Origin: a virus
Length of the DNA stretch: 64,000 nt
IMG/VR virus record: IMGVR_UViG_3300032770_000007
Coordinates: 61,828-125,827 of that record
Direction: 5' to 3' (one strand)
The notes under the pieces were generated by a model, which made no database searches, had not been told where the DNA came from, and saw nothing but the letters and a program-made list of their open reading frames with translations. Shown piece after piece: positions 2,360-62,558 of the stretch. A program made the position numbers and the translations under genes. Every line of letters begins with the position of its first letter. The stretch's first letter is position 1.

Positions 2360-2563
2360 TCATAAATTATCACTTACCAATCCATTAACATTATATGGTG
2401 GCTTTGCTCTTTTCAAAAACTTTTTGGTTCTGTCTTTGAAGTTTTTCTTCATTTTCATCACTGGATCAAAACCAGCTACTGGACCAGCAGCAGGAGCAGC
2501 ATTGGTGAAGCCACCAGTACCAGCTGCCATTACAGCACCGCCATCTTCTTTGATTATCTTCAT
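2360..2563 (-). CDS. small protein carrying a copy of the major capsid protein N-arm
   Basis: AGTGGFTNAAPAAGPVAGFDPV vs gp23 AGTGGYATAATAAGPVAGFDPI; basic C-terminus. Confidence 0.75.
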   Translation of the reverse strand: MKIIKEDGGAVMAAGTGGFTNAAPAAGPVAGFDPVMKMKKNFKDRTKKFLKRAKPPYNVNGLVSDNL

Positions 2564-3327: not shown

Positions 3328-3855
3328 CTAAAATCCATGTAGTTTGAGTTTTGAAATGGAATCTGCGGCCGAAGTATGGAGGATTCCTATACCTCTATTC
3401 TTCATCCATTCCTGAATATTTTGATTTGTATCATCAATAAGAATATTACTTATCACGTTTCTGTTCTCTATTTTGGTAGCATAGTTCTGTTTATGTTCTC
3501 TAAAGACAGCATGAAAATGATCTTTAGGTATACCAAGATACTTTTCACACCAAATCCATTTACCTTCACGAGCATATCTTTGAGAACTTTCTGATGGTGG
3601 TTCACCATTGATCCCTCTAGGAACTGCTGTCAAAATATGTGGCTCATAAGGAACAACATAGTTCCATAGAGTATGAAAGTCTCTAGTTGGTGGTAGATTT
3701 TCCCAAAAGTTAGGACATTCAAATACTCTATGATTTCTGGCTAACTTTTCTTGCCTCGAAACAGGAGCATTCCAATCTATTCCGGTTAGTAGTTTTACTC
3801 CTCTTACAAAATCAACCAGGACCCCATCCATATCAACATATAGCGTAGCACGCAT
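3328..3855 (-). CDS. HAD-family 5'(3')-deoxyribonucleotidase-like phosphatase
   Basis: YVDMDGVLVDF motif I, ILTA motif II, K, ILIDD motif IV. Confidence 0.85.
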   Translation of the reverse strand: MRATLYVDMDGVLVDFVRGVKLLTGIDWNAPVSRQEKLARNHRVFECPNFWENLPPTRDFHTLWNYVVPYEPHILTAVPRGINGEPPSESSQRYAREGKWIWCEKYLGIPKDHFHAVFREHKQNYATKIENRNVISNILIDDTNQNIQEWMKNRGIGILHTSAADSISKLKLHGF

Positions 3856-5462
3856 TATCTACCTCTATTTCCTAATGCTGATATTGCTTTGCTCTTGTTT
3901 AGTTTCAAAGTTGGTTTAGTATCAATAGGATTTGCTTTTGAACCAGTAGCAGTATAGCCACGGAACTGACCCAAGAACTTCTTGCGCTTACCTTCATCAA
4001 TAATCATATCTTCTTTGAGTGTCTTAGCGCGATCCTTTCTAACTATATGAAACTCTCCAGCATCATCCCTAATATGTAGTTCAGTTTTGAAAGGAACCAA
4101 TTGGCTGAAGGTATGTTCACGATGAACACTATGAACAGTCCCTGTTTTGTAACTATTTGTCTCAGGATGAAAATATTTCACTTTTTTACCAACCCAAGGA
4201 TGATTATTGATTTGACCTGCTTTGGTTATTCTACCTTCATCAATGATCATATCTTCATTCAATTCAAAATGAGAAATAGTTGACAGTTTTTCAGGAGTTG
4301 GATGACCAACTAAAGCATGATGATATAACTTGACATTTTTTACATTGTGTGCTTTTTCAACGTGAGTAATACGTTGAGCCATTGTCCATCCTGGAGAATG
4401 AGTAAAAGTATTATCATATGTCTTTTGAAGTTCCATACGAGTTGGTCCTGTATGTGCTTCTGTTATTCCATGCTGTTTACGCAATCTCATAATACCACCA
4501 TGAGCCACATTGCCTGGTGCTACATACTTATGAGCATCCTTGATGTGCTGAGCATGATAATGAGTACCGCCACCAGGTGTAGAATATTGTCTTTCAGAAG
4601 CATTTAGTTTATCAACAATACCCTTTGCTTCTGTTGGTGTATAGAGTTTTGGTTCATCACTTTTTGGCCAGGCATTCTGACGACCACGACCAGCATTACC
4701 TATCACTACATGAGTTGCTTCTTCTTCATTCATTATTGATTCAGCAATCCAACCACCTACATGCCAATGAGTCTTACCTTTATGAGCATGTAATGGTCCC
4801 CATTTCTTAGTATGATCTAAATGATAATCATGAATTTTATTTAGATCGGTATGTGGCGTCTGATGATGTTCAACTTTAGCACGGGATAGCTGAGTATCTT
4901 CATCATATGCACCACCTTCACCATGCTTAAAGCCGCTTCTATGAACATTATTGATATGATCTTGAACATGCTTTACGGTTGGAAATTTGTCAATAGGAAA
5001 GTTAGCATTATAATTATGTGCACCTTCTGTTAAAGATTCTTCTTTCAACTTTTTGTTAGCCAAAGCCACTCCCTTGGCTCTTTTGTCTGCCATCTTCTTA
5101 TGCTTTTCTGCACTAATGTTATCAATACCATATTGATTGGCATAATCTACAGCATGCTTGATTCCAGAGACCTGTGCTTTCCAACGATAGTTGTCAAGAG
5201 TTTTCTTTGAGATTTCTGTTATAGTTTCTTCATCCATGTCAGTATATCTTTTTCTTTCTTCATCATGATGTGCGGTCACTTCTGATTTGGCAACAGGATA
5301 GTTACTCAAACCATTGTTGATCAAAACGTGGGAACCAAAGTCTTGTTTCACGACTCCAAAACCACCCACATGCTTCACGCACGTGCCCACCCAATCAGAA
5401 GGATGGCCATCTTTCCAACCTTCTGTTAGTGTTTCTAATCTGATCTGTAGGAATGATTTCAT
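3855..5462 (-). CDS. His-rich modular internal head polyprotein (putative)
   Basis: CTS-like N-terminus MKSFLQIRLE; repeated (L/I)xE linkers; EDMIIDEG occurs twice. Confidence 0.6.
   Translation of the reverse strand: MKSFLQIRLETLTEGWKDGHPSDWVGTCVKHVGGFGVVKQDFGSHVLINNGLSNYPVAKSEVTAHHDEERKRYTDMDEETITEISKKTLDNYRWKAQVSGIKHAVDYANQYGIDNISAEKHKKMADKRAKGVALANKKLKEESLTEGAHNYNANFPIDKFPTVKHVQDHINNVHRSGFKHGEGGAYDEDTQLSRAKVEHHQTPHTDLNKIHDYHLDHTKKWGPLHAHKGKTHWHVGGWIAESIMNEEEATHVVIGNAGRGRQNAWPKSDEPKLYTPTEAKGIVDKLNASERQYSTPGGGTHYHAQHIKDAHKYVAPGNVAHGGIMRLRKQHGITEAHTGPTRMELQKTYDNTFTHSPGWTMAQRITHVEKAHNVKNVKLYHHALVGHPTPEKLSTISHFELNEDMIIDEGRITKAGQINNHPWVGKKVKYFHPETNSYKTGTVHSVHREHTFSQLVPFKTELHIRDDAGEFHIVRKDRAKTLKEDMIIDEGKRKKFLGQFRGYTATGSKANPIDTKPTLKLNKSKAISALGNRGR
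3989..4256. repeat. 25-bp direct repeat (1 mismatch) encoding linker EDMIIDEG, copies 243 bp apart
   Basis: taccttcatcaataatcatatcttc at 3989-4013 and taccttcatcaatgatcatatcttc at 4232-4256. Confidence 0.9.
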
Positions 5463-5922: not shown

Positions 5923-8301
5923 TTACTTAGTCTCCCAGAACTTGATGTCTGTGGGCTTCAAACCCTCTTGTAATGTAATAGCACCTTTGCGTTCAAACTT
6001 CAAACAGGTTACATTGTCTCCATCTTTCACATAGACGTTATACTGCTTATTTGAACGAAATGGTTTATTAGTCTTTATGACTCTACCTTCATATATAGTC
6101 TCTTCACCTTCTACTCCCCAATCTTCATAGACTTCAGGAGTTGTATATGAAAGATCAGGTGATTTCAAAGAATAATCTTGACGAAAATCTTTGAATGATT
6201 TCTCTTCACTATTCATGCTCATGGTTGTAGAAATGCCCTGGTTACTACCATCAGCCTTTACAGAACTAGTTCTAAATGTCTTTACAGCTTTCTTTGGTTT
6301 ACCTGGTTTGACTGCTTCATCCATCCACCAAACCTTTGGTTTGATATGATGCCAAATATTTTTGTGTTTTTCATGGTGAGAATGAACAGCAGCAATCGCT
6401 TCTTCATATTCTGCCTGTCTTCCATGACCTTCAGCTTTACTTACTTCATGTGCAAGACGATTATGTTCCTTCTGGACATCGGCAATATGTGTTTTGAATT
6501 CCTTATGCTTTGTGCGCTTTGCTAGTTTTTCAAGTCTATCTTGTTCTCTTGATTTTTGTTTATTGGCCTTATTTTCAGCAGCCCATTGAGCAAATACTCC
6601 ATGACCTTCACCAATCGTGCCAACACCAGCCATGTCATCCCCTTGACGAGCATCAGTATGAGTTGCTGGAGCCTTGGCTGCTTTTCTAGGCTTATATTTT
6701 ACATTGGCCGTGCCTGGAGTTGCGGCCAATGGATTTGTTCCATTGGCACCTTGAGCAGCAAAAGCACCACCAACACTATCTGATGGACGGATTGTGCCAA
6801 GAGTTGAAGGAGCCTTCACAGGAGTTACACCTGATGGCTTATTTTGGTTACTAGTTTTCCAAAGAGTAGCCTCTGATGTAGAAGTTATTCCAGCACCAAT
6901 ATCAGCATGAAAAGTTGAGTTGCCAGGAATGGCTGTCCCTGGCAACTTTGTTACCTTGGTTTTACGAAACTTCTTGAAACCTGTTTCTTCTTTCAAACGA
7001 CTTGCACCAGTGCTAGAAGGATCATGGGGACCAGTAGCTATGACCTTTGGAGCATAGGGAACCTGGATAGTTGAAGCATTAGTTCTTAGTCTACCAGTCT
7101 TAGTATCTCTTACAAATCTGCTTGATTTATTATTTTTCTGATTAGGATTTTTAGGAGTTGGTTGTGAAGTGGTATTCGTTGATACTGATGTTCCTGGAGT
7201 TTCATTCAAAAACTCTGCTACTGTTTCATTGATAGATTTTTGACCAGTATAGAAACCAGTGATCAAATCATTTAGTTCATCAAACCATAGTTGTGTTTGT
7301 TCTGTTCTCAAAGGACTGCTATTATCAAAGATAGTAAACAGATTGAATTCATCATTCAGAACTTTAGCATTATATAAAGAACGAGTATATTTCTCTAATC
7401 TAACTTCTTCAGTGATAGTCTTGGCACCTAGTTTGATTCTTTGCTCATTTCTTGCCTGACTAACTTCATCAGTTGTGTAAACATATACACCAGCAGTTCT
7501 ATAGCCTACTGTCTCAAGCACTTTCTTGGTTAAAGTTATCTTCTTGAAATCATCAGCATTACCATTGACAATCAATGGCTCACCTTGATTGACTTCTGCA
7601 ACATTCTTTTGTTCATTGATAGCCTTGTAGAGTTTTTCTAGATTTATCTCAACCAGACTTTCATCATTGAGAACAGTTTCCCTTAGGAGAGCATCCTTGC
7701 CTGATCCTGGACCACCAATAAGGAACAAAGCAGTATACTGTTCAGCCTTTAGACCTTTTCTTGTTGCCATGTATAACTCTTTCGCATGTTGCTTGCTTGG
7801 AACTCCTTTACGGAAACTTTCAAAATCACCTTTTTGAGCATGCTCTCGCATCTTTGAAGCACTCATACCTTCAACACCTTCTGAATCAGGATCTCTATGA
7901 CCAGCTGAAACAACATGAATATTATCAAAGGTATATTCATGTCCATTATATTTATGAAGTAGGTTATGAAAGGACTTGACTCTGTCTTCACCCACAACCA
8001 TTGTAACTCTTTTATGTCCCATCTTTTGTAAATGCTTCATTGCATCCAATGGTGTCTTGATCTCAGCACCAGGATGAACATTTGTCCCTGGCAACATTGA
8101 TTGAATGAAATGAACTTTGTCTCTGTGGGTTAGAGGATTTTTCTTGTTGTCATGGGTACCAGAAACAAATACATAATGATTTGCCCCATGATGTCTAGCT
8201 AACTGTTTGACGTGGTTTATTAGTTTGGCATGTCCTGATGTTGGTGGGTTCATCCTACCGAACGTAAACACCGCCGCTTCTTTGACTTCTGGTTTTTCCA
8301 T
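5923..8301 (-). CDS. HxGH-type nucleotidyltransferase (cytidyltransferase-like) fused to P-loop kinase and a modular tail
   Basis: FGRMNPPTSGH, VGEDR, MSASKMR motifs; GGPGSGKD Walker A; low-complexity C-terminal modules. Confidence 0.85.
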   Translation of the reverse strand: MEKPEVKEAAVFTFGRMNPPTSGHAKLINHVKQLARHHGANHYVFVSGTHDNKKNPLTHRDKVHFIQSMLPGTNVHPGAEIKTPLDAMKHLQKMGHKRVTMVVGEDRVKSFHNLLHKYNGHEYTFDNIHVVSAGHRDPDSEGVEGMSASKMREHAQKGDFESFRKGVPSKQHAKELYMATRKGLKAEQYTALFLIGGPGSGKDALLRETVLNDESLVEINLEKLYKAINEQKNVAEVNQGEPLIVNGNADDFKKITLTKKVLETVGYRTAGVYVYTTDEVSQARNEQRIKLGAKTITEEVRLEKYTRSLYNAKVLNDEFNLFTIFDNSSPLRTEQTQLWFDELNDLITGFYTGQKSINETVAEFLNETPGTSVSTNTTSQPTPKNPNQKNNKSSRFVRDTKTGRLRTNASTIQVPYAPKVIATGPHDPSSTGASRLKEETGFKKFRKTKVTKLPGTAIPGNSTFHADIGAGITSTSEATLWKTSNQNKPSGVTPVKAPSTLGTIRPSDSVGGAFAAQGANGTNPLAATPGTANVKYKPRKAAKAPATHTDARQGDDMAGVGTIGEGHGVFAQWAAENKANKQKSREQDRLEKLAKRTKHKEFKTHIADVQKEHNRLAHEVSKAEGHGRQAEYEEAIAAVHSHHEKHKNIWHHIKPKVWWMDEAVKPGKPKKAVKTFRTSSVKADGSNQGISTTMSMNSEEKSFKDFRQDYSLKSPDLSYTTPEVYEDWGVEGEETIYEGRVIKTNKPFRSNKQYNVYVKDGDNVTCLKFERKGAITLQEGLKPTDIKFWETK

Positions 8302-8330: not shown

Positions 8331-9494
8331 CTATTTATGCTTTGAGAGATTTATTCTACTAAAGCCTTCTCTATTGACTAGTTTTGAAGGAAAACCATGA
8401 TGAATGGCCACAAATCCTTCTCCTGGACCTTCTCTACCATCAACACTGGTCACATAATGATTGGTCTTATCTAGAGCATCAATAAGAACATTCTTGGCTT
8501 GTTGTAAGTGATGATGTAGATCAAAGAGGCTTTGATATTTTTCATGGTGTTCATCCATGTGATTGAGATGAGACAGAAGTTGTTCTTTCTTCTTCAATCT
8601 ACCTGCCACAGTTTTCAACTTATCAGCCTCTTGTTTGTAATAGTTTGTAATAGAAGCCTTTAGACCAATGGCTGTAGGTTTCTCACCATTTCTTACAGTA
8701 TCATTGATATATTTCTTGATGAAGTTAGCATGACCTACTGTTTCTTTGAATGTCTCTGGATGAGCCTTTAGATAGGTCTTTTCAGCATCAGTTATATGTT
8801 TGGTGAAATTATTATCAAAATCTTCTCCACCCAAAGATTTATCCAAATGGAAATTAGGATCAATCAAATGAACTGATCTGCTACCACGAAAGTTGTGCAA
8901 ATCTGGTTCAAATCCAGCCGTCATTGATCCTAAATCTTTCCCATGATATTTGGTATGGACTACTATACCTATTTGAGCATGCTTAATCTTTTCTGCTTCT
9001 GGATCTTTCTTTTTGATACTATACATCAAGGTATTTGGAGTGAAATGATATGCCTTATCATCCTCATGTATAGTATCTTTATTGTACATGAAATCACCCT
9101 GATAAACTCCTGTATGAGGAACTACTCTTACCAAATGTTCTCTAGCTGATTTTAGTTTGGCTGCTAACTCTGGTCTATCAGAATAATGCTTTTCAATATC
9201 AGCTTCTGTGAAGTTTAAAGTTGGTTTGTCAGAAAGAACAGCCTTGGTGCCAACAAAGAACTTACCAGTCTTAGGATCATGCCCAAAGACGATAGAAGGA
9301 CTACCATCAAACTTTGTAGTGATTTTTGTAGTGGATGGTTTGCCTAAAATACGATCATGAACAGAATGAAGGAGGTCTTTGACATGTTGGTACCCACGAG
9401 CATCATCCTGCAAAATATGATCTTCTACATGCTCTAAGTGTTTCAGTTTTCCAAAAGAATCTAAACTCTCTGCAATATATTGTTTGAAACTCAC
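8331..9494 (-). CDS. DUF6267-like protein with ligase/covalent nucleotidyltransferase motifs
   Basis: KHLEHVED, TTKFDGSP (KxDG), YQGDFM, GEGFV, SKLVNR; N-terminus MSFKQYIAE resembles the T4 capsid targeting sequence. Confidence 0.75.
   Translation of the reverse strand: MSFKQYIAESLDSFGKLKHLEHVEDHILQDDARGYQHVKDLLHSVHDRILGKPSTTKITTKFDGSPSIVFGHDPKTGKFFVGTKAVLSDKPTLNFTEADIEKHYSDRPELAAKLKSAREHLVRVVPHTGVYQGDFMYNKDTIHEDDKAYHFTPNTLMYSIKKKDPEAEKIKHAQIGIVVHTKYHGKDLGSMTAGFEPDLHNFRGSRSVHLIDPNFHLDKSLGGEDFDNNFTKHITDAEKTYLKAHPETFKETVGHANFIKKYINDTVRNGEKPTAIGLKASITNYYKQEADKLKTVAGRLKKKEQLLSHLNHMDEHHEKYQSLFDLHHHLQQAKNVLIDALDKTNHYVTSVDGREGPGEGFVAIHHGFPSKLVNREGFSRINLSKHK
8332..8338 (-). promoter_or_regulatory. 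T4-type late promoter (ATAAATA)
   Basis: (C/A)TAAATA recurs upstream of late genes (also 26936, 49405, 52266, 53144, 56543, 60612, 60938); gp55 sigma is encoded. Confidence 0.6.
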
Positions 9495-49580: not shown

Positions 49581-50993
49581 TCATTTTAGATTGCTTACAA
49601 TAGCCTTACGGTAGTATAGGTTACTGTTGGCAGTTAGAGCTCCTAGTCCCTGTGTGTAACCCTGTGCGAATGGGTTAGCAACCAAGCCATAACGGGTCTT
49701 GAAACCAATCTTAGGCTGATAGGTGTTAGGATCAATTGCACGTACCATCTGCAATGGAACATAAGGACAGTAGAACAAACCTGCATCGTAGGCATTTGAT
49801 CCACGGTATCCAGCAACATAGTAGTCTGCGCCTGATACTGAGTAAGGATCAACGAATACCTTCACCTTACCATTTAGGATGCCAAGGAATGTGCCTCTCT
49901 CATAGTCATCAGGCATTGCAACACCACCAGTAAGTTTATCGAACTTGCTTAGGTAGTCAAGCATTCCTGACATAGCCAGAGCCGATCCCACGTCTGAAGA
50001 GACGATAAGGATATTGCCCTTTCCTCTACGAGTATCCTTCTCGATTCTGTTACATTCTCTTTCAATCTGGAATACCAGACCCTTATAAGCTTCAACTGCC
50101 CATCTACCATATGAGTCACCAGTGAATGATGAACCAGTAAATGGTGTCAAGTTGAATGTACCTACAGAGGTTGATGTCTGAGCACCAACTGATGAGGTAA
50201 TGTAAATATTACGGATAACTTCACGATTGATTTCAGCCAACAGTTCTGTTGAAAGAATGTTAGCCAATTCTGTCTCAGCATCAAGACCATGAATGGCCTT
50301 CAAATCCTGTGCCAGTTCAAGGGTGTATCCAGCCTGCAAGCCACGGCCATTTGCTGTAACCGTAACTTTTTCGATTGAGAAACCCATGTTCTGCAAAGTT
50401 GTACCGCCACCCAAATCTTCTAGGTTAGCAGTTGGCCAGCCACCACCAGCACCATAGGCTGTGTTGCTACCACCAGGATTAGCATTCTGAGCTGAAGCAT
50501 TTGAAAGAGGACCAACAAATGCTAGTGATAGATTACCACCATAATTGTTAGCTTCCTGATACAGAGCTTCATTGTTTACACCATTGATCTGTGCGTTTGA
50601 TGTAGCATATACAGAACGCATTGCGAAGATCAAACCAGTAGGACCGGTCATAGGCTGAACACCGCAGACATCATAGCCCATCAAAACAGGCATGTTTCTA
50701 CGGATCAAACTAATCAGGATTGGGTCAAAACCAGCAACTGGACCAGCTGCTGTTGCGGCAGTAGCATAACCACCTGTACCAGCAAAATTGACTGGAAGTG
50801 TTTCTGTGATCATTCCACCACCAACGAAACCACCTTCAACCAACTGACGACGCTCTTCAGCTAATGAACGCTCTGTGTTTTCCAACAGCACGGCGCAATG
50901 TAGTCTACGAGTAGCATCCTTGATCTTTGGAAGGTCTTCGTGATCCAATACTGGACCCCACTTCTTCAATAGTTCATCGTTATTATATCTCAT
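49581..50993 (-). CDS. gp23: major capsid protein
   Basis: KWGPVLDH, GPVAGFDPILISLIRR, CGVQPMTGPTGLIFAMR, ELAQDLKAIHGLDAE, YCPYVPLQ, IGFKTRYG. Confidence 0.99.
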   Translation of the reverse strand: MRYNNDELLKKWGPVLDHEDLPKIKDATRRLHCAVLLENTERSLAEERRQLVEGGFVGGGMITETLPVNFAGTGGYATAATAAGPVAGFDPILISLIRRNMPVLMGYDVCGVQPMTGPTGLIFAMRSVYATSNAQINGVNNEALYQEANNYGGNLSLAFVGPLSNASAQNANPGGSNTAYGAGGGWPTANLEDLGGGTTLQNMGFSIEKVTVTANGRGLQAGYTLELAQDLKAIHGLDAETELANILSTELLAEINREVIRNIYITSSVGAQTSTSVGTFNLTPFTGSSFTGDSYGRWAVEAYKGLVFQIERECNRIEKDTRRGKGNILIVSSDVGSALAMSGMLDYLSKFDKLTGGVAMPDDYERGTFLGILNGKVKVFVDPYSVSGADYYVAGYRGSNAYDAGLFYCPYVPLQMVRAIDPNTYQPKIGFKTRYGLVANPFAQGYTQGLGALTANSNLYYRKAIVSNLK

Positions 50994-52284: not shown

Positions 52285-52929
52285 TTACAACTTGTTGATA
52301 AAATGGCTAAATGCTTTGAGTGTTGTTTCTTCCAAATTCTTACTCTTAGCATTCTTTACTTCTTGGTAGATAGCATGAATATCTGCTTCTTGAATTAGAC
52401 CATTATTCCAGACCCATTCCCTTTGTTCCATTAGTCCACGAACAAATGCATCAGGTGCTGAAGGATCGGCAACTATATCTGCACCAGTAGAAAGGTGATA
52501 GTCATCCTGGACCATGTTTATACCTTCTACCATTTTCAAAGAACCAACACCTCTTGAAGAAACACCAATTTGACCACCATCCTCAATGAGTGCTCTAACT
52601 GTATTTCCCATAGGTGTTTCTAATATTCTTGCTTTACCTATCCAGTTATTACCTTCTGATTTCAAATTAACAATACGATGAGAAGCACGATCAAGATTGA
52701 TAGTTGGACTTTCTGGATGACCTAGTTCGCCCCAGGCACAGTTACGATCAACTTTTTCCTTTAGATAACGTGCTACTTCACGTTCAAGAATAGCTCTTGG
52801 ATAGATACGGCTATTGCGATTTTTTTGTTCAGCCTGTAAGAAAACTCCCTCAATATAAAGGGATTTCTTACCTTCCTTTTCCTCAGTTAGGTAGCGAACG
52901 TCTTCTATTTGTTCAATCAATAAACGCAT
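52285..52929 (-). CDS. gp21: prohead protease
   Basis: IEGVFLQ..KNRNSRIYP, GELGHP, GVSSRGVGS, DIVADPSAPDAFV. Confidence 0.97.
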   Translation of the reverse strand: MRLLIEQIEDVRYLTEEKEGKKSLYIEGVFLQAEQKNRNSRIYPRAILEREVARYLKEKVDRNCAWGELGHPESPTINLDRASHRIVNLKSEGNNWIGKARILETPMGNTVRALIEDGGQIGVSSRGVGSLKMVEGINMVQDDYHLSTGADIVADPSAPDAFVRGLMEQREWVWNNGLIQEADIHAIYQEVKNAKSKNLEETTLKAFSHFINKL

Positions 52930-53192: not shown

Positions 53193-53468
53193 TTACAGTC
53201 CTAGACTGTGTCTCCTACGCATACTTCTGGCTCTTTTCATCAATATTCTCGCTCTTTTTGACTTGAGTTTGAATTTTGCTCTTCTGGCTCCTCTCTTACG
53301 ATGAAGCTTTTCAGAAGCACTCATTCTTACAAGTTTTCCATGAGATAATCTAAATCCCTTTACATTAGAGATTTTGACATTTCTCTGAACTTTACCACCA
53401 CGTATTCTTATTCTTACCCTCTTTATTCTTGGACCTACTTCTGTTAGAAAGGTCGCAAAACTACCCAT
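53193..53468 (-). CDS. gp68: basic prohead core protein (gp68-like)
   Basis: MGSFATFLTE then very Arg/Lys-rich (VRMSASEK..RKRGAR..RSMRRR..LGL); position. Confidence 0.7.
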   Translation of the reverse strand: MGSFATFLTEVGPRIKRVRIRIRGGKVQRNVKISNVKGFRLSHGKLVRMSASEKLHRKRGARRAKFKLKSKRARILMKRARSMRRRHSLGL

Positions 53469-53944: not shown

Positions 53945-54601
53945 TTATTTTTTCGCCTCTTTATTGACTAAATCACTGGCGAACTTCGCCACTTTCACTA
54001 ATCCCTCTGGACTACTATTTATCAATTCACTAAGTTTCATTTTATTTGAACTATTAACCTTGTGCCAGAGATCATGAACAGCCTTAGCAGTGACTGGATG
54101 AACTCTTGATGTTGCTCCATTATGGAATAGAACTTCATCCTCTTCACCTTTCCTAAGAATAGTATTTATTCGATGCATTGGTGTTTCTTGTAATACTTCT
54201 TCTTTCACATTTCCCTGTCCATAGTCATGAGACCAGGTACCTACCACTTGATCTCCATTATAAGCAATAGTGTGGCCTTTTGATTTACCAGCATAACCCA
54301 ATGGAGCACGATGACGTTGAATAGTTGTTGCTCCTTTTGATTTTACTTCATCTTCCCATTCACCGTACAAACGATGAGGAGCATTTTCTTTGATTGGTAA
54401 CATATTTGATGGTTTTAGTTTGCCCGTTGTATAATCATAAGGAATAGCGATAGAGATTGATAACTGAGGATTTGTATAAAGAGCTACTCTTTCTCCATTA
54501 GGATAGTTTCTAATAGCCATCCTTCTCATTTGTAATAACATTGGAGGATCAGCGGTTTCTAAAACCATATTTTCATGAATAAAGTTTCTAAAAGTTTTCA
54601 T
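53945..54601 (-). CDS. putative internal head protein
   Basis: CTS-like MKTFRNFIHE; DPPMLLQMRR..IR.YP.G.RVALY module; IKE, VKEE and LQE linkers. Confidence 0.65.
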   Translation of the reverse strand: MKTFRNFIHENMVLETADPPMLLQMRRMAIRNYPNGERVALYTNPQLSISIAIPYDYTTGKLKPSNMLPIKENAPHRLYGEWEDEVKSKGATTIQRHRAPLGYAGKSKGHTIAYNGDQVVGTWSHDYGQGNVKEEVLQETPMHRINTILRKGEEDEVLFHNGATSRVHPVTAKAVHDLWHKVNSSNKMKLSELINSSPEGLVKVAKFASDLVNKEAKK

Positions 54602-55214
54602 TTGATATACTCTTACATTTATCAAAATGCCAACGTTTCATAACATTATATTGACCAATTTTGCCACAATGAATACATTCTATCTTTTTTCTAGCTAAAG
54701 AAACCTTTCTAAGTTTTTCTCTAACTTTTGGACGTTTGATCGGACTATTATCACCTCTAAACTTATTTGCTATTTCTTTATTGAACATAGGATTATCAGA
54801 AATCATCATTTCAGTATGACGTTTCATATATTCAATATTTGTATGTAAATGATGATTTGCCCCAGATTTTTTCAAAATAACTTCTGGTCGATACATAGGA
54901 TTATCTGTTTTCAAATATTGAACAAACTTTCTTTTCAACCAACCAAATTCTTTGTTATTTACTCGTTGTCCATATTTATCCCAACTCATTACTTTTACAG
55001 CCCATAATAATGATTTATTTCCTGGATATATCTTTACTAATAGTTGATGCGCGACATAGTGTTCTTCTGGTGTAAGAAATGCAATATTGTCCTTGGTGTA
55101 TTTGCCTCCTAAGCAACCAGGAACTATTCGATGTCGTTCAAAGTAACCAGTTTTTGGTTTTGTCTTTGGAGCACGATTTATAAGTTTGTCATAATGATAT
55201 TGATAGTTCATCAT
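54588..55214 (-). CDS. HNH (Mob-like) homing endonuclease
   Basis: NYQYHYDKLI, ERHRIVPGCLGG..DNIAFLTPEEHYVAHQLL; DNPM repeats; C-terminal CIHC..RWHFDKC. Confidence 0.88.
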   Translation of the reverse strand: MMNYQYHYDKLINRAPKTKPKTGYFERHRIVPGCLGGKYTKDNIAFLTPEEHYVAHQLLVKIYPGNKSLLWAVKVMSWDKYGQRVNNKEFGWLKRKFVQYLKTDNPMYRPEVILKKSGANHHLHTNIEYMKRHTEMMISDNPMFNKEIANKFRGDNSPIKRPKVREKLRKVSLARKKIECIHCGKIGQYNVMKRWHFDKCKSISNENF

Positions 55215-55963
55215 TACTTCTTGTGCTTTGAGAAATAAGCACCTAGCGCACGGCGAATGCGTTGTTTCTTGCTATCACCTTTAAACATTTTATTCTTTGA
55301 ATGAACAAAGTCATCAATATAGGTAGAAGCAGAAGCATTAGGAGAAAGAACTTCATTGATCTTGTTCAATCTAATAGTATCTTCTTTCAAACGTCTAGGA
55401 TTGCTTGGATCATGTGGCCATAAATGCTTCACAAAATATCCGTGCATTTTCATCATATGGTCTCGATTAGTTCCCTTCTTAGCCAAAGCATGTTCTTCTG
55501 GAGTTCCAAAATGCTTTGCCATAAGTATAGCATTCTTATCATGGAAGTTTTCATCTTCATTCTTGCGATACTGACGGATTAAAGCTTTGTGATTTATAGT
55601 CTCATTCACAACTTCTTCAGCAGCAATATTATCAATATTTTTGGTTCTTAGACCATCAATATTTTGCTTAGCATTTTCAACCGCAGACTTCTTGATTTTT
55701 GGAGTTGCTTCTTCTTTAGCAAGTTTTTTAGCAGCTAATCTAACACCAGCCAAACGTTTATTAGCAGTACGCTTTGCTGAAGAATCGTTTGGTGTTTGAG
55801 CAAGTTGATTCGGTGTTAATGTTGAAGCCTGATGTACTCTCATAGCATGATGTACTGCGGCATGCATCATAGCAGAGCTAGCAGCCTTATCAATATATCC
55901 GGCTAATGTCTTCTTATTGAGTTCAGTTATAACTGTTCTTATTGTTGATAGGGTCTTAGACAT
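55214..55963 (-). CDS. putative modular internal head protein
   Basis: ITE, AKEE, VNE, LKE and INE linkers; first module similar to one in 3855..5462. Confidence 0.6.
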   Translation of the reverse strand: MSKTLSTIRTVITELNKKTLAGYIDKAASSAMMHAAVHHAMRVHQASTLTPNQLAQTPNDSSAKRTANKRLAGVRLAAKKLAKEEATPKIKKSAVENAKQNIDGLRTKNIDNIAAEEVVNETINHKALIRQYRKNEDENFHDKNAILMAKHFGTPEEHALAKKGTNRDHMMKMHGYFVKHLWPHDPSNPRRLKEDTIRLNKINEVLSPNASASTYIDDFVHSKNKMFKGDSKKQRIRRALGAYFSKHKK

Positions 55964-56503
55964 TTATTTCACGTGTCCAAAGTTGCGAGCAAAGTTTGCC
56001 ATTTTAGCAGCATGACCACCAGCAGCCAAACCTTTTTCAATATCAGCATGAGTAATAGGTTGATCCTCAGACTTACCCAACCAACGATGGAAGGCACCTT
56101 TTGCTATGTGGCCTACCTTTTCATCGATGGCTTCCCCACCAGCAGCTGGAAAAACTTCCTCTACACAAATGTGGCCTTCATTTCTCTCATTATACCAACG
56201 ACCCAGTTCCTCACCAGCACTTAATGCTACAAGGCAGTTTGGTTCCTGTGAATGAGCAGTTACTGCATCAGCACCATGCTCAGAAGCAGCCTGCTGCCAA
56301 GAATCAAAGTTATCAAACTTCATTTCGCCACCACCAGCAGATTCTGCTTCAGCATCAGCAACTTCATCTTCAAACAGTTTGCTGGCTATTTCTGCCTTCT
56401 TGGCTTCTAATGCCAAACCGATCTTTTCTCCAAGCACAGTTTCTAAATGTGTTTGAAAGTTGTGTGCCTGTTTTTGGTCTGCCATGTCTACAAATCTATT
56501 CAT
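55964..56503 (-). CDS. gp67: prohead core protein gp67-like with appended modules
   Basis: KIGLALEAKKAEIASKLFE followed by an acidic tract; directly after the portal. Confidence 0.65.
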   Translation of the reverse strand: MNRFVDMADQKQAHNFQTHLETVLGEKIGLALEAKKAEIASKLFEDEVADAEAESAGGGEMKFDNFDSWQQAASEHGADAVTAHSQEPNCLVALSAGEELGRWYNERNEGHICVEEVFPAAGGEAIDEKVGHIAKGAFHRWLGKSEDQPITHADIEKGLAAGGHAAKMANFARNFGHVK

Positions 56504-61598: not shown

Positions 61599-62558
61599 CT
61601 ATACTCTCCTCTTGTTCTTGCCCCAACGAGGCAAAAGATTTCTATTGATGAAAACTTTATATGGAGCAAAGTCAATCCTGATGTCCTGACAAAGTTTCTT
61701 AAATCCATCAATAGCCTGTTGTGGCCGAATCATTTGCAACTCATGATCTGTAATCAATGCTACATTAGTTACATCTCCACGATGCATTCTGTTTTTAACC
61801 CATTTCACATAGGCCATGAGAAACTGTATTTGTAGTTTTTGTTCTTCCCAGGTAGGAGTCATCTCAAAGAAACGAAATTCAAAAGTATTGAGATGAAAAC
61901 AAGACCTGAACATATAATCTTTAGACCAGTCCATGAGTCCAATTATATCACAAGTAGGTGATATCTTAACTTTGACTGGATCAGTATTATAAATCAGTGA
62001 TAGTAAAACTCGAAATAACCCAGGTGAATAGAAGACTACGTCTCTATCAAGATTATCCTCTTCCAATAAGAGGTCTCTCATATATGTTTTCTTATTGATC
62101 AAAACATTCATGGAGTCAACTTCATCCTTCTCACCAAATACCCAGGGCAAGAATGGACGCATTATCAAATCCTTGGCCAATGCTACCTTCAAATATTTGT
62201 CTTTGATCCCCAAGTGAATGTGTGCTCCACCATCCACAGTTTCTGGATGTTTGGGATAACAATCATAAAAATTAAAAATATCACGTACAGCAATACACCA
62301 AGATTCTGCTTCTTGCATTGTGTATAGTTTTGGTGATGATACTTCTATACAATGTACATCATGATGACACGTATAATATTTGATATTTTTATTCTTGAGT
62401 TCTGTTTCAATCAAATCTGTTTTCTCTAATAATAGTACATCCATTTCCTGAGAATGTTGTTCATATAATTCATTGTATGGAGAAGGATTGAAATATTTTT
62501 CCTTGAACTCTGCCGGGACTCCTGTCAACTCAATACCCATGGGATAAGGCAAACGCAT
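61599..62558 (-). CDS. putative amidoligase (COOH-NH2 ligase, Amidoligase_2-like)
   Basis: GIEL, IEVSSP, GGAHIH, TFEFRFF motifs of the GS/GCS-like fold. Confidence 0.7.
   Translation of the reverse strand: MRLPYPMGIELTGVPAEFKEKYFNPSPYNELYEQHSQEMDVLLLEKTDLIETELKNKNIKYYTCHHDVHCIEVSSPKLYTMQEAESWCIAVRDIFNFYDCYPKHPETVDGGAHIHLGIKDKYLKVALAKDLIMRPFLPWVFGEKDEVDSMNVLINKKTYMRDLLLEEDNLDRDVVFYSPGLFRVLLSLIYNTDPVKVKISPTCDIIGLMDWSKDYMFRSCFHLNTFEFRFFEMTPTWEEQKLQIQFLMAYVKWVKNRMHRGDVTNVALITDHELQMIRPQQAIDGFKKLCQDIRIDFAPYKVFINRNLLPRWGKNKRRV

Follow-up and report, generated by a model that had tools for sequence, protein, structure and literature searches.

A candidate capsid-cargo polyprotein of exchangeable small modules in an environmental T4-like phage

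The modular gene, its leader and its parts

The window analysed here is a stretch of 64,000 nucleotides (positions 61,828 to 125,827) of the IMG/VR virus record IMGVR_UViG_3300032770_000007, a T4-like myovirus of which 126 kb have been recovered at an estimated completeness of 69%. Our subject is a single gene within it, at 3855..5462 on the minus strand, whose product appears to be a string of small modules behind a short leader like those that direct proteins into the head of phage T4. A polyprotein at these positions had been put forward in an original prediction made from the DNA letters and their translations; one real open reading frame (ORF) of 535 residues does fill the interval, with its stop codon at 3855-3857 and a plus strand that is full of stops, though the prediction had missed both the minus-strand orientation and a conserved basic tail at the C-terminus. 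The order of genes is a ligase-like DUF6267 protein, a cytidyltransferase/kinase protein of 792 residues, a protein of 152 residues, the modular protein itself and an NT5C-like nucleotidase. The modular gene overlaps both of its neighbours, by its start with the stop of the upstream 152-residue gene and by its stop with the start of the NT5C-like gene that follows, and it is translationally coupled to both.

The protein can be divided into a leader of 14 residues, six modules of 63-95 residues and a basic tail of 45 residues, all encoded on the minus strand. The leader (5421..5462) reads MKSFLQIRLE followed by TLTE. Behind it stands M1 (residues 15-83, 5214..5420), a core module that ends in ETITE and is present in a minimal form of the gene of 116 residues, followed by M2 (residues 84-146, 5025..5213), which begins ISKKTL, ends in LKEESLTE and is related to the N-terminal part of another ORF of the window at 55214-55963. 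M3 (residues 147-241, 4740..5024) is 15.8% histidine, ends in GWIAE and recurs in seven relatives, while M4 (residues 242-335, 4458..4739), ending in QHGITE, is the most widespread module. M5 (residues 336-409, 4236..4457) ends in LNEDMIIDE, and M6 (residues 410-490, 3993..4235), which ends in LKEDMIIDE, is flanked by a direct repeat of 28 nt. The tail, M7 (residues 491-535, 3858..3992), has an isoelectric point (pI) of 11.6 and is always C-terminal in the 16 relatives that have it; the protein as a whole is 8.2% histidine, with a pI of 9.3. The N-terminus and acidic linkers picked out by the original prediction (TLTE, TITE, LKEESLTE, IAESIMNEEE, GITE, LNEDMIIDE and LKEDMIIDE) were all found, and its remark that the modules are mostly unrelated to each other was borne out by BLASTP, in which the sole similarity lay in the linker repeated where M5 and M6 end.

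The leader was confirmed as resembling the capsid-targeting sequence (CTS) of T4 when set beside the T4 leaders (NC_000866): it has F4, I7, E10 and an L-T-E that ends at residue 14, where the leaders of IPII and IPIII read MKTYQEFIAE|A and that of IPI reads MKTFKEF...ITE|A. Residues 4 and 7 of a CTS serve mainly in targeting and residues 8 and 10 in processing, and in T4 an Asp at position 10 of the CTS stops processing but leaves targeting intact (PMC9026906). Judged on sequence similarity alone, the leader fits the CTS type, an N-terminal propeptide of 10-19 residues with hydrophobic residues at positions 4 and 7 and a hydrophobic-x-Glu end, and its cut would be placed at E14. Close relatives start MKSFKQIRE, MKTFEQIRAITE or MKTVKQIRE, and seven of ten residues are identical to the leader of ORF91 of Synechococcus phage S-SCSM1 (MKSFLQFLKE|A). 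Within the 126-kb record the leader pattern matches just three ORFs, of which the other two sit between the portal and protease genes. Of the 95 relatives described below, 57 have an [LIVM]-x-E near the N-terminus with its end at residues 6-16, compared with 26 of the 187 ORFs of this phage itself (Fisher 3e-15).

Structure prediction module by module, which had been suggested as a check, succeeded for M4 and failed for M3. Modelled alone, M4 has a confident predicted fold with unstructured ends (predicted local distance difference test, pLDDT, 91.8; predicted template modelling score, pTM, 0.82), and the predicted fold is identical when M3 is attached. That two-module model is uninformative on M3 itself, because M3 reached a pLDDT of only 32-54 with just two aligned relatives. 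The whole-chain model in the ESM Atlas has a pTM of 0.24. A single continuous fold is excluded, because the modules are shuffled among relatives and, for M4, because of the model.

Module exchange and the junction motif

When 1.84 billion representative proteins were searched exhaustively with phmmer, 95 relatives emerged; a word-indexed search gave two partial relatives only. Each of the 95 shares just one to four modules with the modular protein, in other orders or contexts, and the limits of the matches fall on module boundaries. Local profile searches across the 96 proteins, our own included, placed M1 in 7, M2 in 13, M3 in 8, M4 in 54, M5 in 9, M6 in 16 and M7 in 17. At least two recognised modules occur together in 24 of these proteins (the modular protein and 23 relatives), five of them in a different order and M7 always last. 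Many of the M4 proteins are stand-alone genes of ~100 residues with a short leader of their own. P0042, the minimal form of 116 residues, consists of leader, M1 and tail. In all seven relatives that have M3, the module starts at (L/I)-x-E|G and finishes with GW(I/L)AE, and two of these proteins terminate exactly at the Glu of GW(I/L)AE. A full-length MAFFT alignment of so mosaic a set was unworkable. The suggestion that module content would vary among homologues while the linkers stay constant is thus upheld, in that the modules are autonomous and shuffled and the junction motif is conserved.

Two further loci show related arrangements. At one (L008, 5899-9054), ~10 small genes stand in tandem, with a near-identical leader of 14 residues (of the MKITKRQLRRIIKE type) in front of unrelated bodies, one of which is M4; the array looks like a multigene counterpart of the polyprotein. 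At the other (L012, 3480-5528), the cultured T4-like Caulobacter phage Cr30 encodes a hypothetical protein of 682 residues, gp064, whose gene follows a cytidyltransferase gene at a distance of two genes downstream. The N-terminus of gp064 reads MRSKILAE|ISKKTL, and the protein contains several M2-like repeats with Glu-ending joints between them.

The modular protein has ten [LI]-x-E motifs (E14, 83, 141, 146, 241, 335, 403, 409, 484 and 490), every one of them in the leader or at the end of a module and none in a module core; (L/I)-T-E occurs at four of the junctions. With the modular protein itself excluded, 115 module starts in 88 proteins could be compared: 89 have an [LIVM]-x-E that ends no more than six residues upstream (background 12%, p ~3e-58), and 39 have it exactly at position -1, against a background of 2%. 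Where the starts are sharp, as they are for four modules, Glu occupies -1 in 38 of 45 cases, and every one of these 38 has L, I, V or M at -3, compared with 26% of all Glu in these proteins (p 8e-23). The junction consensus is E-E-x-[L/V/I]-[D/T/N]-E|[G/A/L], with P6 and P5 mostly Glu; the composition of P3 in 89 sites (L 46, V 22, I 17, M 4) is descriptive, the sites having been preselected with [LIVM]-x-E. At the level of sequence, this motif matches the cutting rule of the T4 protease gp21. A hydrophobic P3 is required by that rule and not by an acidic linker, and so counts for cut sites over mere linkers.

The content of the gene also varies at a fixed position. Two IMG/VR loci, L001 and L002, are syntenic with the window (58% and 42% identity in the DUF6267 protein, 46% and 43% in the 792-residue protein), and in both the slot is held by a shorter protein: 116 residues in L001, comprising leader, M1 and tail, and 376 residues in L002, comprising leader, two copies of M1, other modules and tail. 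Leader and tail are constant in the syntenic slot, and what lies between them varies. In the DNA, M6 and one linker are flanked by the 28-nt direct repeat (3989-4016 and 4232-4259, 26 of 28 positions identical, 243 nt apart), and stretches of 19-23 nt with 83-84% identity are common to joints of the ESLTEG type. If the joints recombine, the shuffling of modules would be explained.

Resemblance to known families was sought widely. Neither Pfam nor PHROGs gave a match to the modular protein, so that no peptidase family was detected in it and no membership of T4_CASP, phrog_1064 or phrog_1049; tblastn with this protein, the relatives P0004 and P0019 and ORF 55214-55963 found no match in 50,697 phage records. 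A sequence search of the PDB returned nothing at E <= 1 for any module, and Foldseek returned nothing for the M4 fold at E <= 1e-3 in the PDB or BFVD. Pfam searches on 21 M4 members gave one stray EF-hand match only, PHROG searches on P0019, P0020, P0042, P0009, P0010, P0004, P0056, P0024, P0072 and P0003 gave matches for P0056 only, and the ESM Atlas gave only unnamed viral clusters and weak small-barrel look-alikes for M4 and M6. Two candidate identities for M4, a ClpS-like protein (VIA-align wide, best Z 4.1) and a small anti-CRISPR-associated chain (Z 4.0), were rejected as below a meaningful level.

Head proteins and the proposed packaging and processing

The head genes of the window are of T4 type. 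Sheath, tube, portal, Peptidase_S77 protease, T4-type scaffold and gp23-type capsid protein are encoded within 49.6-60.6 kb, with the head cluster at 49.6-58.1 kb, and the modular gene (3855-5462) does not lie between the portal and scaffold genes. The gp21-type protease expected at 52285..52929 (minus strand) is present: it belongs to the prohead protease family of T4 gp21 (Peptidase_S77, E 4.8e-40; phrog_207, E 1.3e-78) and is the presumed processing enzyme. In the gp23-type major capsid protein (49581..50993, minus strand), whose best named relatives are those of cyanophages at 56% identity, I-T-E64|T aligns with L-T-E65|A of T4 gp23. T4 gp23 loses a propeptide of 65 residues, the end of which is this E65, and the T4 internal proteins lose only their propeptides (PMC9958956).

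Several relatives lie among head genes or are joined to head proteins. In the IMG/VR locus L007 a protein of 955 residues, starting MKTFNQFVTE, occupies the slot of T4 gp67/gp68 between portal and prohead protease; it contains M4 (62% identity) and about nine other modules, with joints of the EE(V/A)EQIDE type. L009 has a set of small genes with a common leader, one of them the M4 match, in the interval from a protease fragment to the scaffold gene. The first part of ORF 55214-55963, in the head cluster of the window, shares 36% identity with M2, and in P0056 M2 follows a domain of the T4 gp67 family (phrog_1064). Furthermore, the neighbouring 792-residue protein is 44% identical over 178 residues to S-SCSM1 ORF91, an NMNAT/cytidyltransferase-like protein that was detected by mass spectrometry in CsCl-purified virions; its authors note that nucleotidyltransferase-like enzymes recur in cyanophage virion proteomes, and their paper has no mention of a leader or of processing and a supplement without peptide-level data (PMC9602691).

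T4 internal proteins are the model for phage proteins that are injected ahead of gene expression. We consider it probable that the modular protein is a capsid-cargo polyprotein, loaded into the head and cut there as proposed, in which the T4 principle of a targeting leader and a gp21 cut, applied there to a single cargo in each gene, would be widened to several cargos in a row. Its packaging, cutting and delivery are steps that we infer, as follows. The leader, with its hydrophobic residues at 4 and 7 and its hydrophobic-x-Glu end, would steer the precursor to the scaffolding core inside the prohead, where the activated Peptidase_S77 protease would remove the leader and cut each (E-E)-x-[L/I/V]-x-E junction behind its last Glu. 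Cutting would free six folded modules of 7-11 kDa and a very basic tail peptide of 5 kDa inside the head, and these pieces would remain with the DNA and exit with it at infection. Microhomology between the nucleotides of the junctions may also let recombination swap modules between cargo genes. A more speculative extension, which we hold only tentatively, is that each junction has a dual purpose, as a cut site for the head protease and as a site of DNA recombination, for which M6 with its flanking repeat and the ESLTEG-type joints would be examples. With one leader and one conserved basic tail, the gene would then be an integron-like cassette array from which T4-like phages of uncultured hosts draw reshuffled, injected mini-proteins that each inhibit a host defence, like T4 Ip1-3.

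A number of observations weigh against the polyprotein reading. The head cluster lies 48 kb from the modular gene, whose neighbours are genes of nucleotide and sugar metabolism, and support for a late promoter consists of one motif. The 792-residue partner and its relative P0002 hold modules and junction motifs yet have no N-terminal leader, and so the junction motifs also occur in proteins without an evident targeting signal. The leader itself has a degenerate first hydrophobic-x-E, I-R-L-E where relatives have I-R-E, and the pattern that matches three ORFs of the record was written once examples had been seen. The relatives are cluster representatives that are not fully independent, and the motif can travel with its module; M3 has the poor model described above. 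Within the modular protein, two measures fall short of significance when taken alone: motif density (1.9 per 100 residues, against 1.2 over 85 ORFs of the window) and a permutation, among its Glu positions, of motifs against alignment termini (p = 0.125). The case therefore rests on comparison with relatives.

That comparison also bears on whether the chain would be cut at all. The protein might be packaged and lose only its leader, to persist as an internal protein of 58 kDa, beads on a string, in which the hydrophobic-x-E stretches are flexible linkers; the T4 internal proteins, after all, lose only a propeptide (PMC9958956), and linkers so rich in Glu at P6 and P5 are of a kind often seen in flexible linkers. 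Such an outcome is unlikely in our judgement. A flexible linker would not require the hydrophobic residue that stands at -3 in 38 of 38 Glu-ending junctions when 26% of Glu generally have one, the capsid maturation site has the same type of tripeptide (I/L-T-E), two relatives stop at the GW(I/L)AE boundary and modules are also found as genes of their own. An exposed gp21-type site in a prohead full of active protease would, moreover, be expected to be cut.

What the pieces would do once freed is a separate matter. T4 prohead core proteins gp22, gp67 and gp68 are cut at several gp21 sites, and the modular protein could likewise be a sacrificial core or counter-ion component, loaded and cut, whose pieces, the basic tail and the Lys/His-rich modules, only fill the core, leave the head or neutralise the charge of DNA with no effector role in the next host. 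The fusion of M2 to a gp67-family domain in P0056, the polyprotein of L007 in the gp67/gp68 slot, the high pI of the tail and of the whole protein and the lack of likeness between any module and a known inhibitor or enzyme are all in keeping with this, and yet we regard it as rather improbable. The content of the fixed locus varies rapidly (116, 376 and 535 residues) and is drawn from a large shuffled pool, which is more like arms-race cargo than like structural filler; M4 is predicted to be well folded, is conserved and is also a stand-alone gene in many phages; and T4 Ip1-3, which are alike only in their leader, are all defence inhibitors (PMC12373910). The anti-defence or takeover role that the original prediction assigned to the modules is for its part unsupported, as no module matches a known family or fold, and a role as DNA counter-ion or core filler is equally conceivable.

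Very unlikely, finally, is a cytoplasmic multidomain protein with no link to the capsid, its N-terminus an ordinary conserved helix and its motif a matter of composition at domain boundaries: the metabolic setting 48 kb from the head cluster and the modules and junction motifs of the leaderless 792-residue neighbour and P0002 would suit it, but the leader has seven of ten residues in common with that of a cyanophage protein detected in virions and is close to the leader of T4 IPI, the only other ORFs of the genome with this leader lie between portal and protease, relatives are located within head modules, the neighbour's cytidyltransferase family is repeatedly found in cyanophage virions (PMC9602691), and the T4 ip genes likewise lie outside the head cluster (NC_000866).

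Read as a capsid-cargo polyprotein, the modular protein has counterparts in several known systems and differs from each. Like T4 IPI, IPII, IPIII and Alt, it has a short leader and a Peptidase_S77 protease in the same genome, and as with the internal proteins its cargos are alike in leader only and its locus is variable, non-essential-looking and outside the head cluster; T4 Ip1-3 share only their leader, each blocking a distinct GmrSD enzyme of type IV restriction (PMC12373910). Unlike them, it has one leader for seven modules, internal junction sites, a conserved basic tail and modules exchanged among many proteins, and no module is homologous to any T4 internal protein (by tblastn on the 50,697 phage records). 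Like the polyvalent proteins of Iyer et al. 2017 (PMC5512222), it joins many unrelated domains in one polypeptide with a predicted passage alongside the DNA and proteolytic release; enzymatic domains and zincin-like peptidases embedded in the chain are typical of those proteins, whereas its modules of 5-11 kDa include no recognisable enzyme or peptidase and the head-maturation protease would cut it in trans, at a motif of T4 type. The ejection and inner-body proteins of phiKZ, 201phi2-1 and SPN3US are also processed by a gp21-related protease at Glu-ending motifs, often at several sites, with products ejected together with the DNA (PMC5694885 and PMC9026906). In those giant phages the motifs are A/S/G-x-E and the extra sites fall mostly in long propeptides that are discarded, whereas P3 at the junctions described here is L, V or I and the sites separate conserved, shuffled modules. 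With gp22, gp67 and gp68 of T4 the connection is through P0056, a relative in M2 fused to a gp67-family domain, and the L007 polyprotein in the gp67/gp68 position; unlike them, the modular protein has no similarity to these core proteins and lies outside the head cluster. The cargo of S-SCSM1 ORF91 (PMC9602691) is an enzyme and not a string of small modules. A search of literature that took in few subscription journals found no description of CTS-led multi-module polyproteins in T4-like phages.

If the polyprotein reading is true, environmental T4-like phages would have scaled up the internal-protein principle, using one tag for many cargos drawn from a large, unannotated and shuffled pool. 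Leader and junction motif together would amount to a sequence rule by which metagenomes could be searched for injected proteins, small folded domains would become candidate defence inhibitors in their hundreds, and the gene would show how nature designs the loading of several proteins into capsids of T4 type. The reading would also offer a possible explanation, absent from PMC9602691, for the recurrence of nucleotidyltransferase-like enzymes in cyanophage virion proteomes.

Neighbouring genes and minor observations

The upstream operon partner of 792 residues (5923..8301, minus strand) has a domain like those of cytidyltransferases, a Zeta-toxin-like region that resembles P-loop kinases, an extension of ~400 residues and a conserved domain at the C-terminus. 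The extension is of low complexity and contains the junction-like motifs EFLNE, RLKEE and TIGE; in P0002, a relative of the 792-residue protein, the modules carried are M5 and M3. A link between the 152-residue neighbour and P0062, suspected by eye, was not confirmed by BLASTP and was dropped.

The DUF6267 protein (8331-9494, minus strand) has a K-x-D-G stretch, TTKFDGSP, which we take to resemble motif I of covalent nucleotidyltransferases and ligases, and PHROG 455 unites the DUF6267 domain with cytidyltransferase. Ahead of its Pfam domain, which is matched from residue 18, is a CTS-like leader ending I-A-E, and the syntenic copies keep such a leader (MSFKKFISE and MSFRKFITE); the DUF6267 protein, too, may be an enzyme that is packaged. 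An ORF of 67 residues (2360-2563, minus strand) likewise starts with a short leader, here ending I-K-E, and has 43% identity over 44 residues to S-SCSM1 ORF97, which is annotated as a 'virion protein'.

A late-promoter-like motif, CATAAATA, at 8332..8339 on the minus strand, lies 38 nt upstream of the start of the 792-residue gene and recurs 33 nt upstream of the scaffold gene; weak in itself, it gives weak evidence that the operon of the modular gene may be expressed late. Within the window CATAAATA stands 29-38 nt upstream of three gene starts, that of the scaffold gene among them. Of the T4 late-promoter core TATAAATA the window has a single copy, which is not near the modular gene, against 6.15 copies expected from shuffles, and a scan for sigma-70 promoters and terminators was uninformative. 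On the minus strand, 4 of 17 NATAAATA sites sit 19-38 nt upstream of a start.

Among the head genes, small ORFs lie between portal and protease at 53945-54601, 53193-53468, 55214-55963 and 55964-56503, all on the minus strand. Leaders in this group, ending hydrophobic-x-E, include MKTFRNFIHE (read from a Met inside the longest ORF), MGSFATFLTE and MSKTLSTIRTVITE, and the ORF at 55964-56503 is weakly like the gp67-like part of P0056 (24% over 70 residues, pairwise E 1e-5). The products of these ORFs are probably prohead-core or internal proteins. A homing-endonuclease gene (phrog_655; 54588-55214, minus strand) is inserted among the head genes in the same interval.

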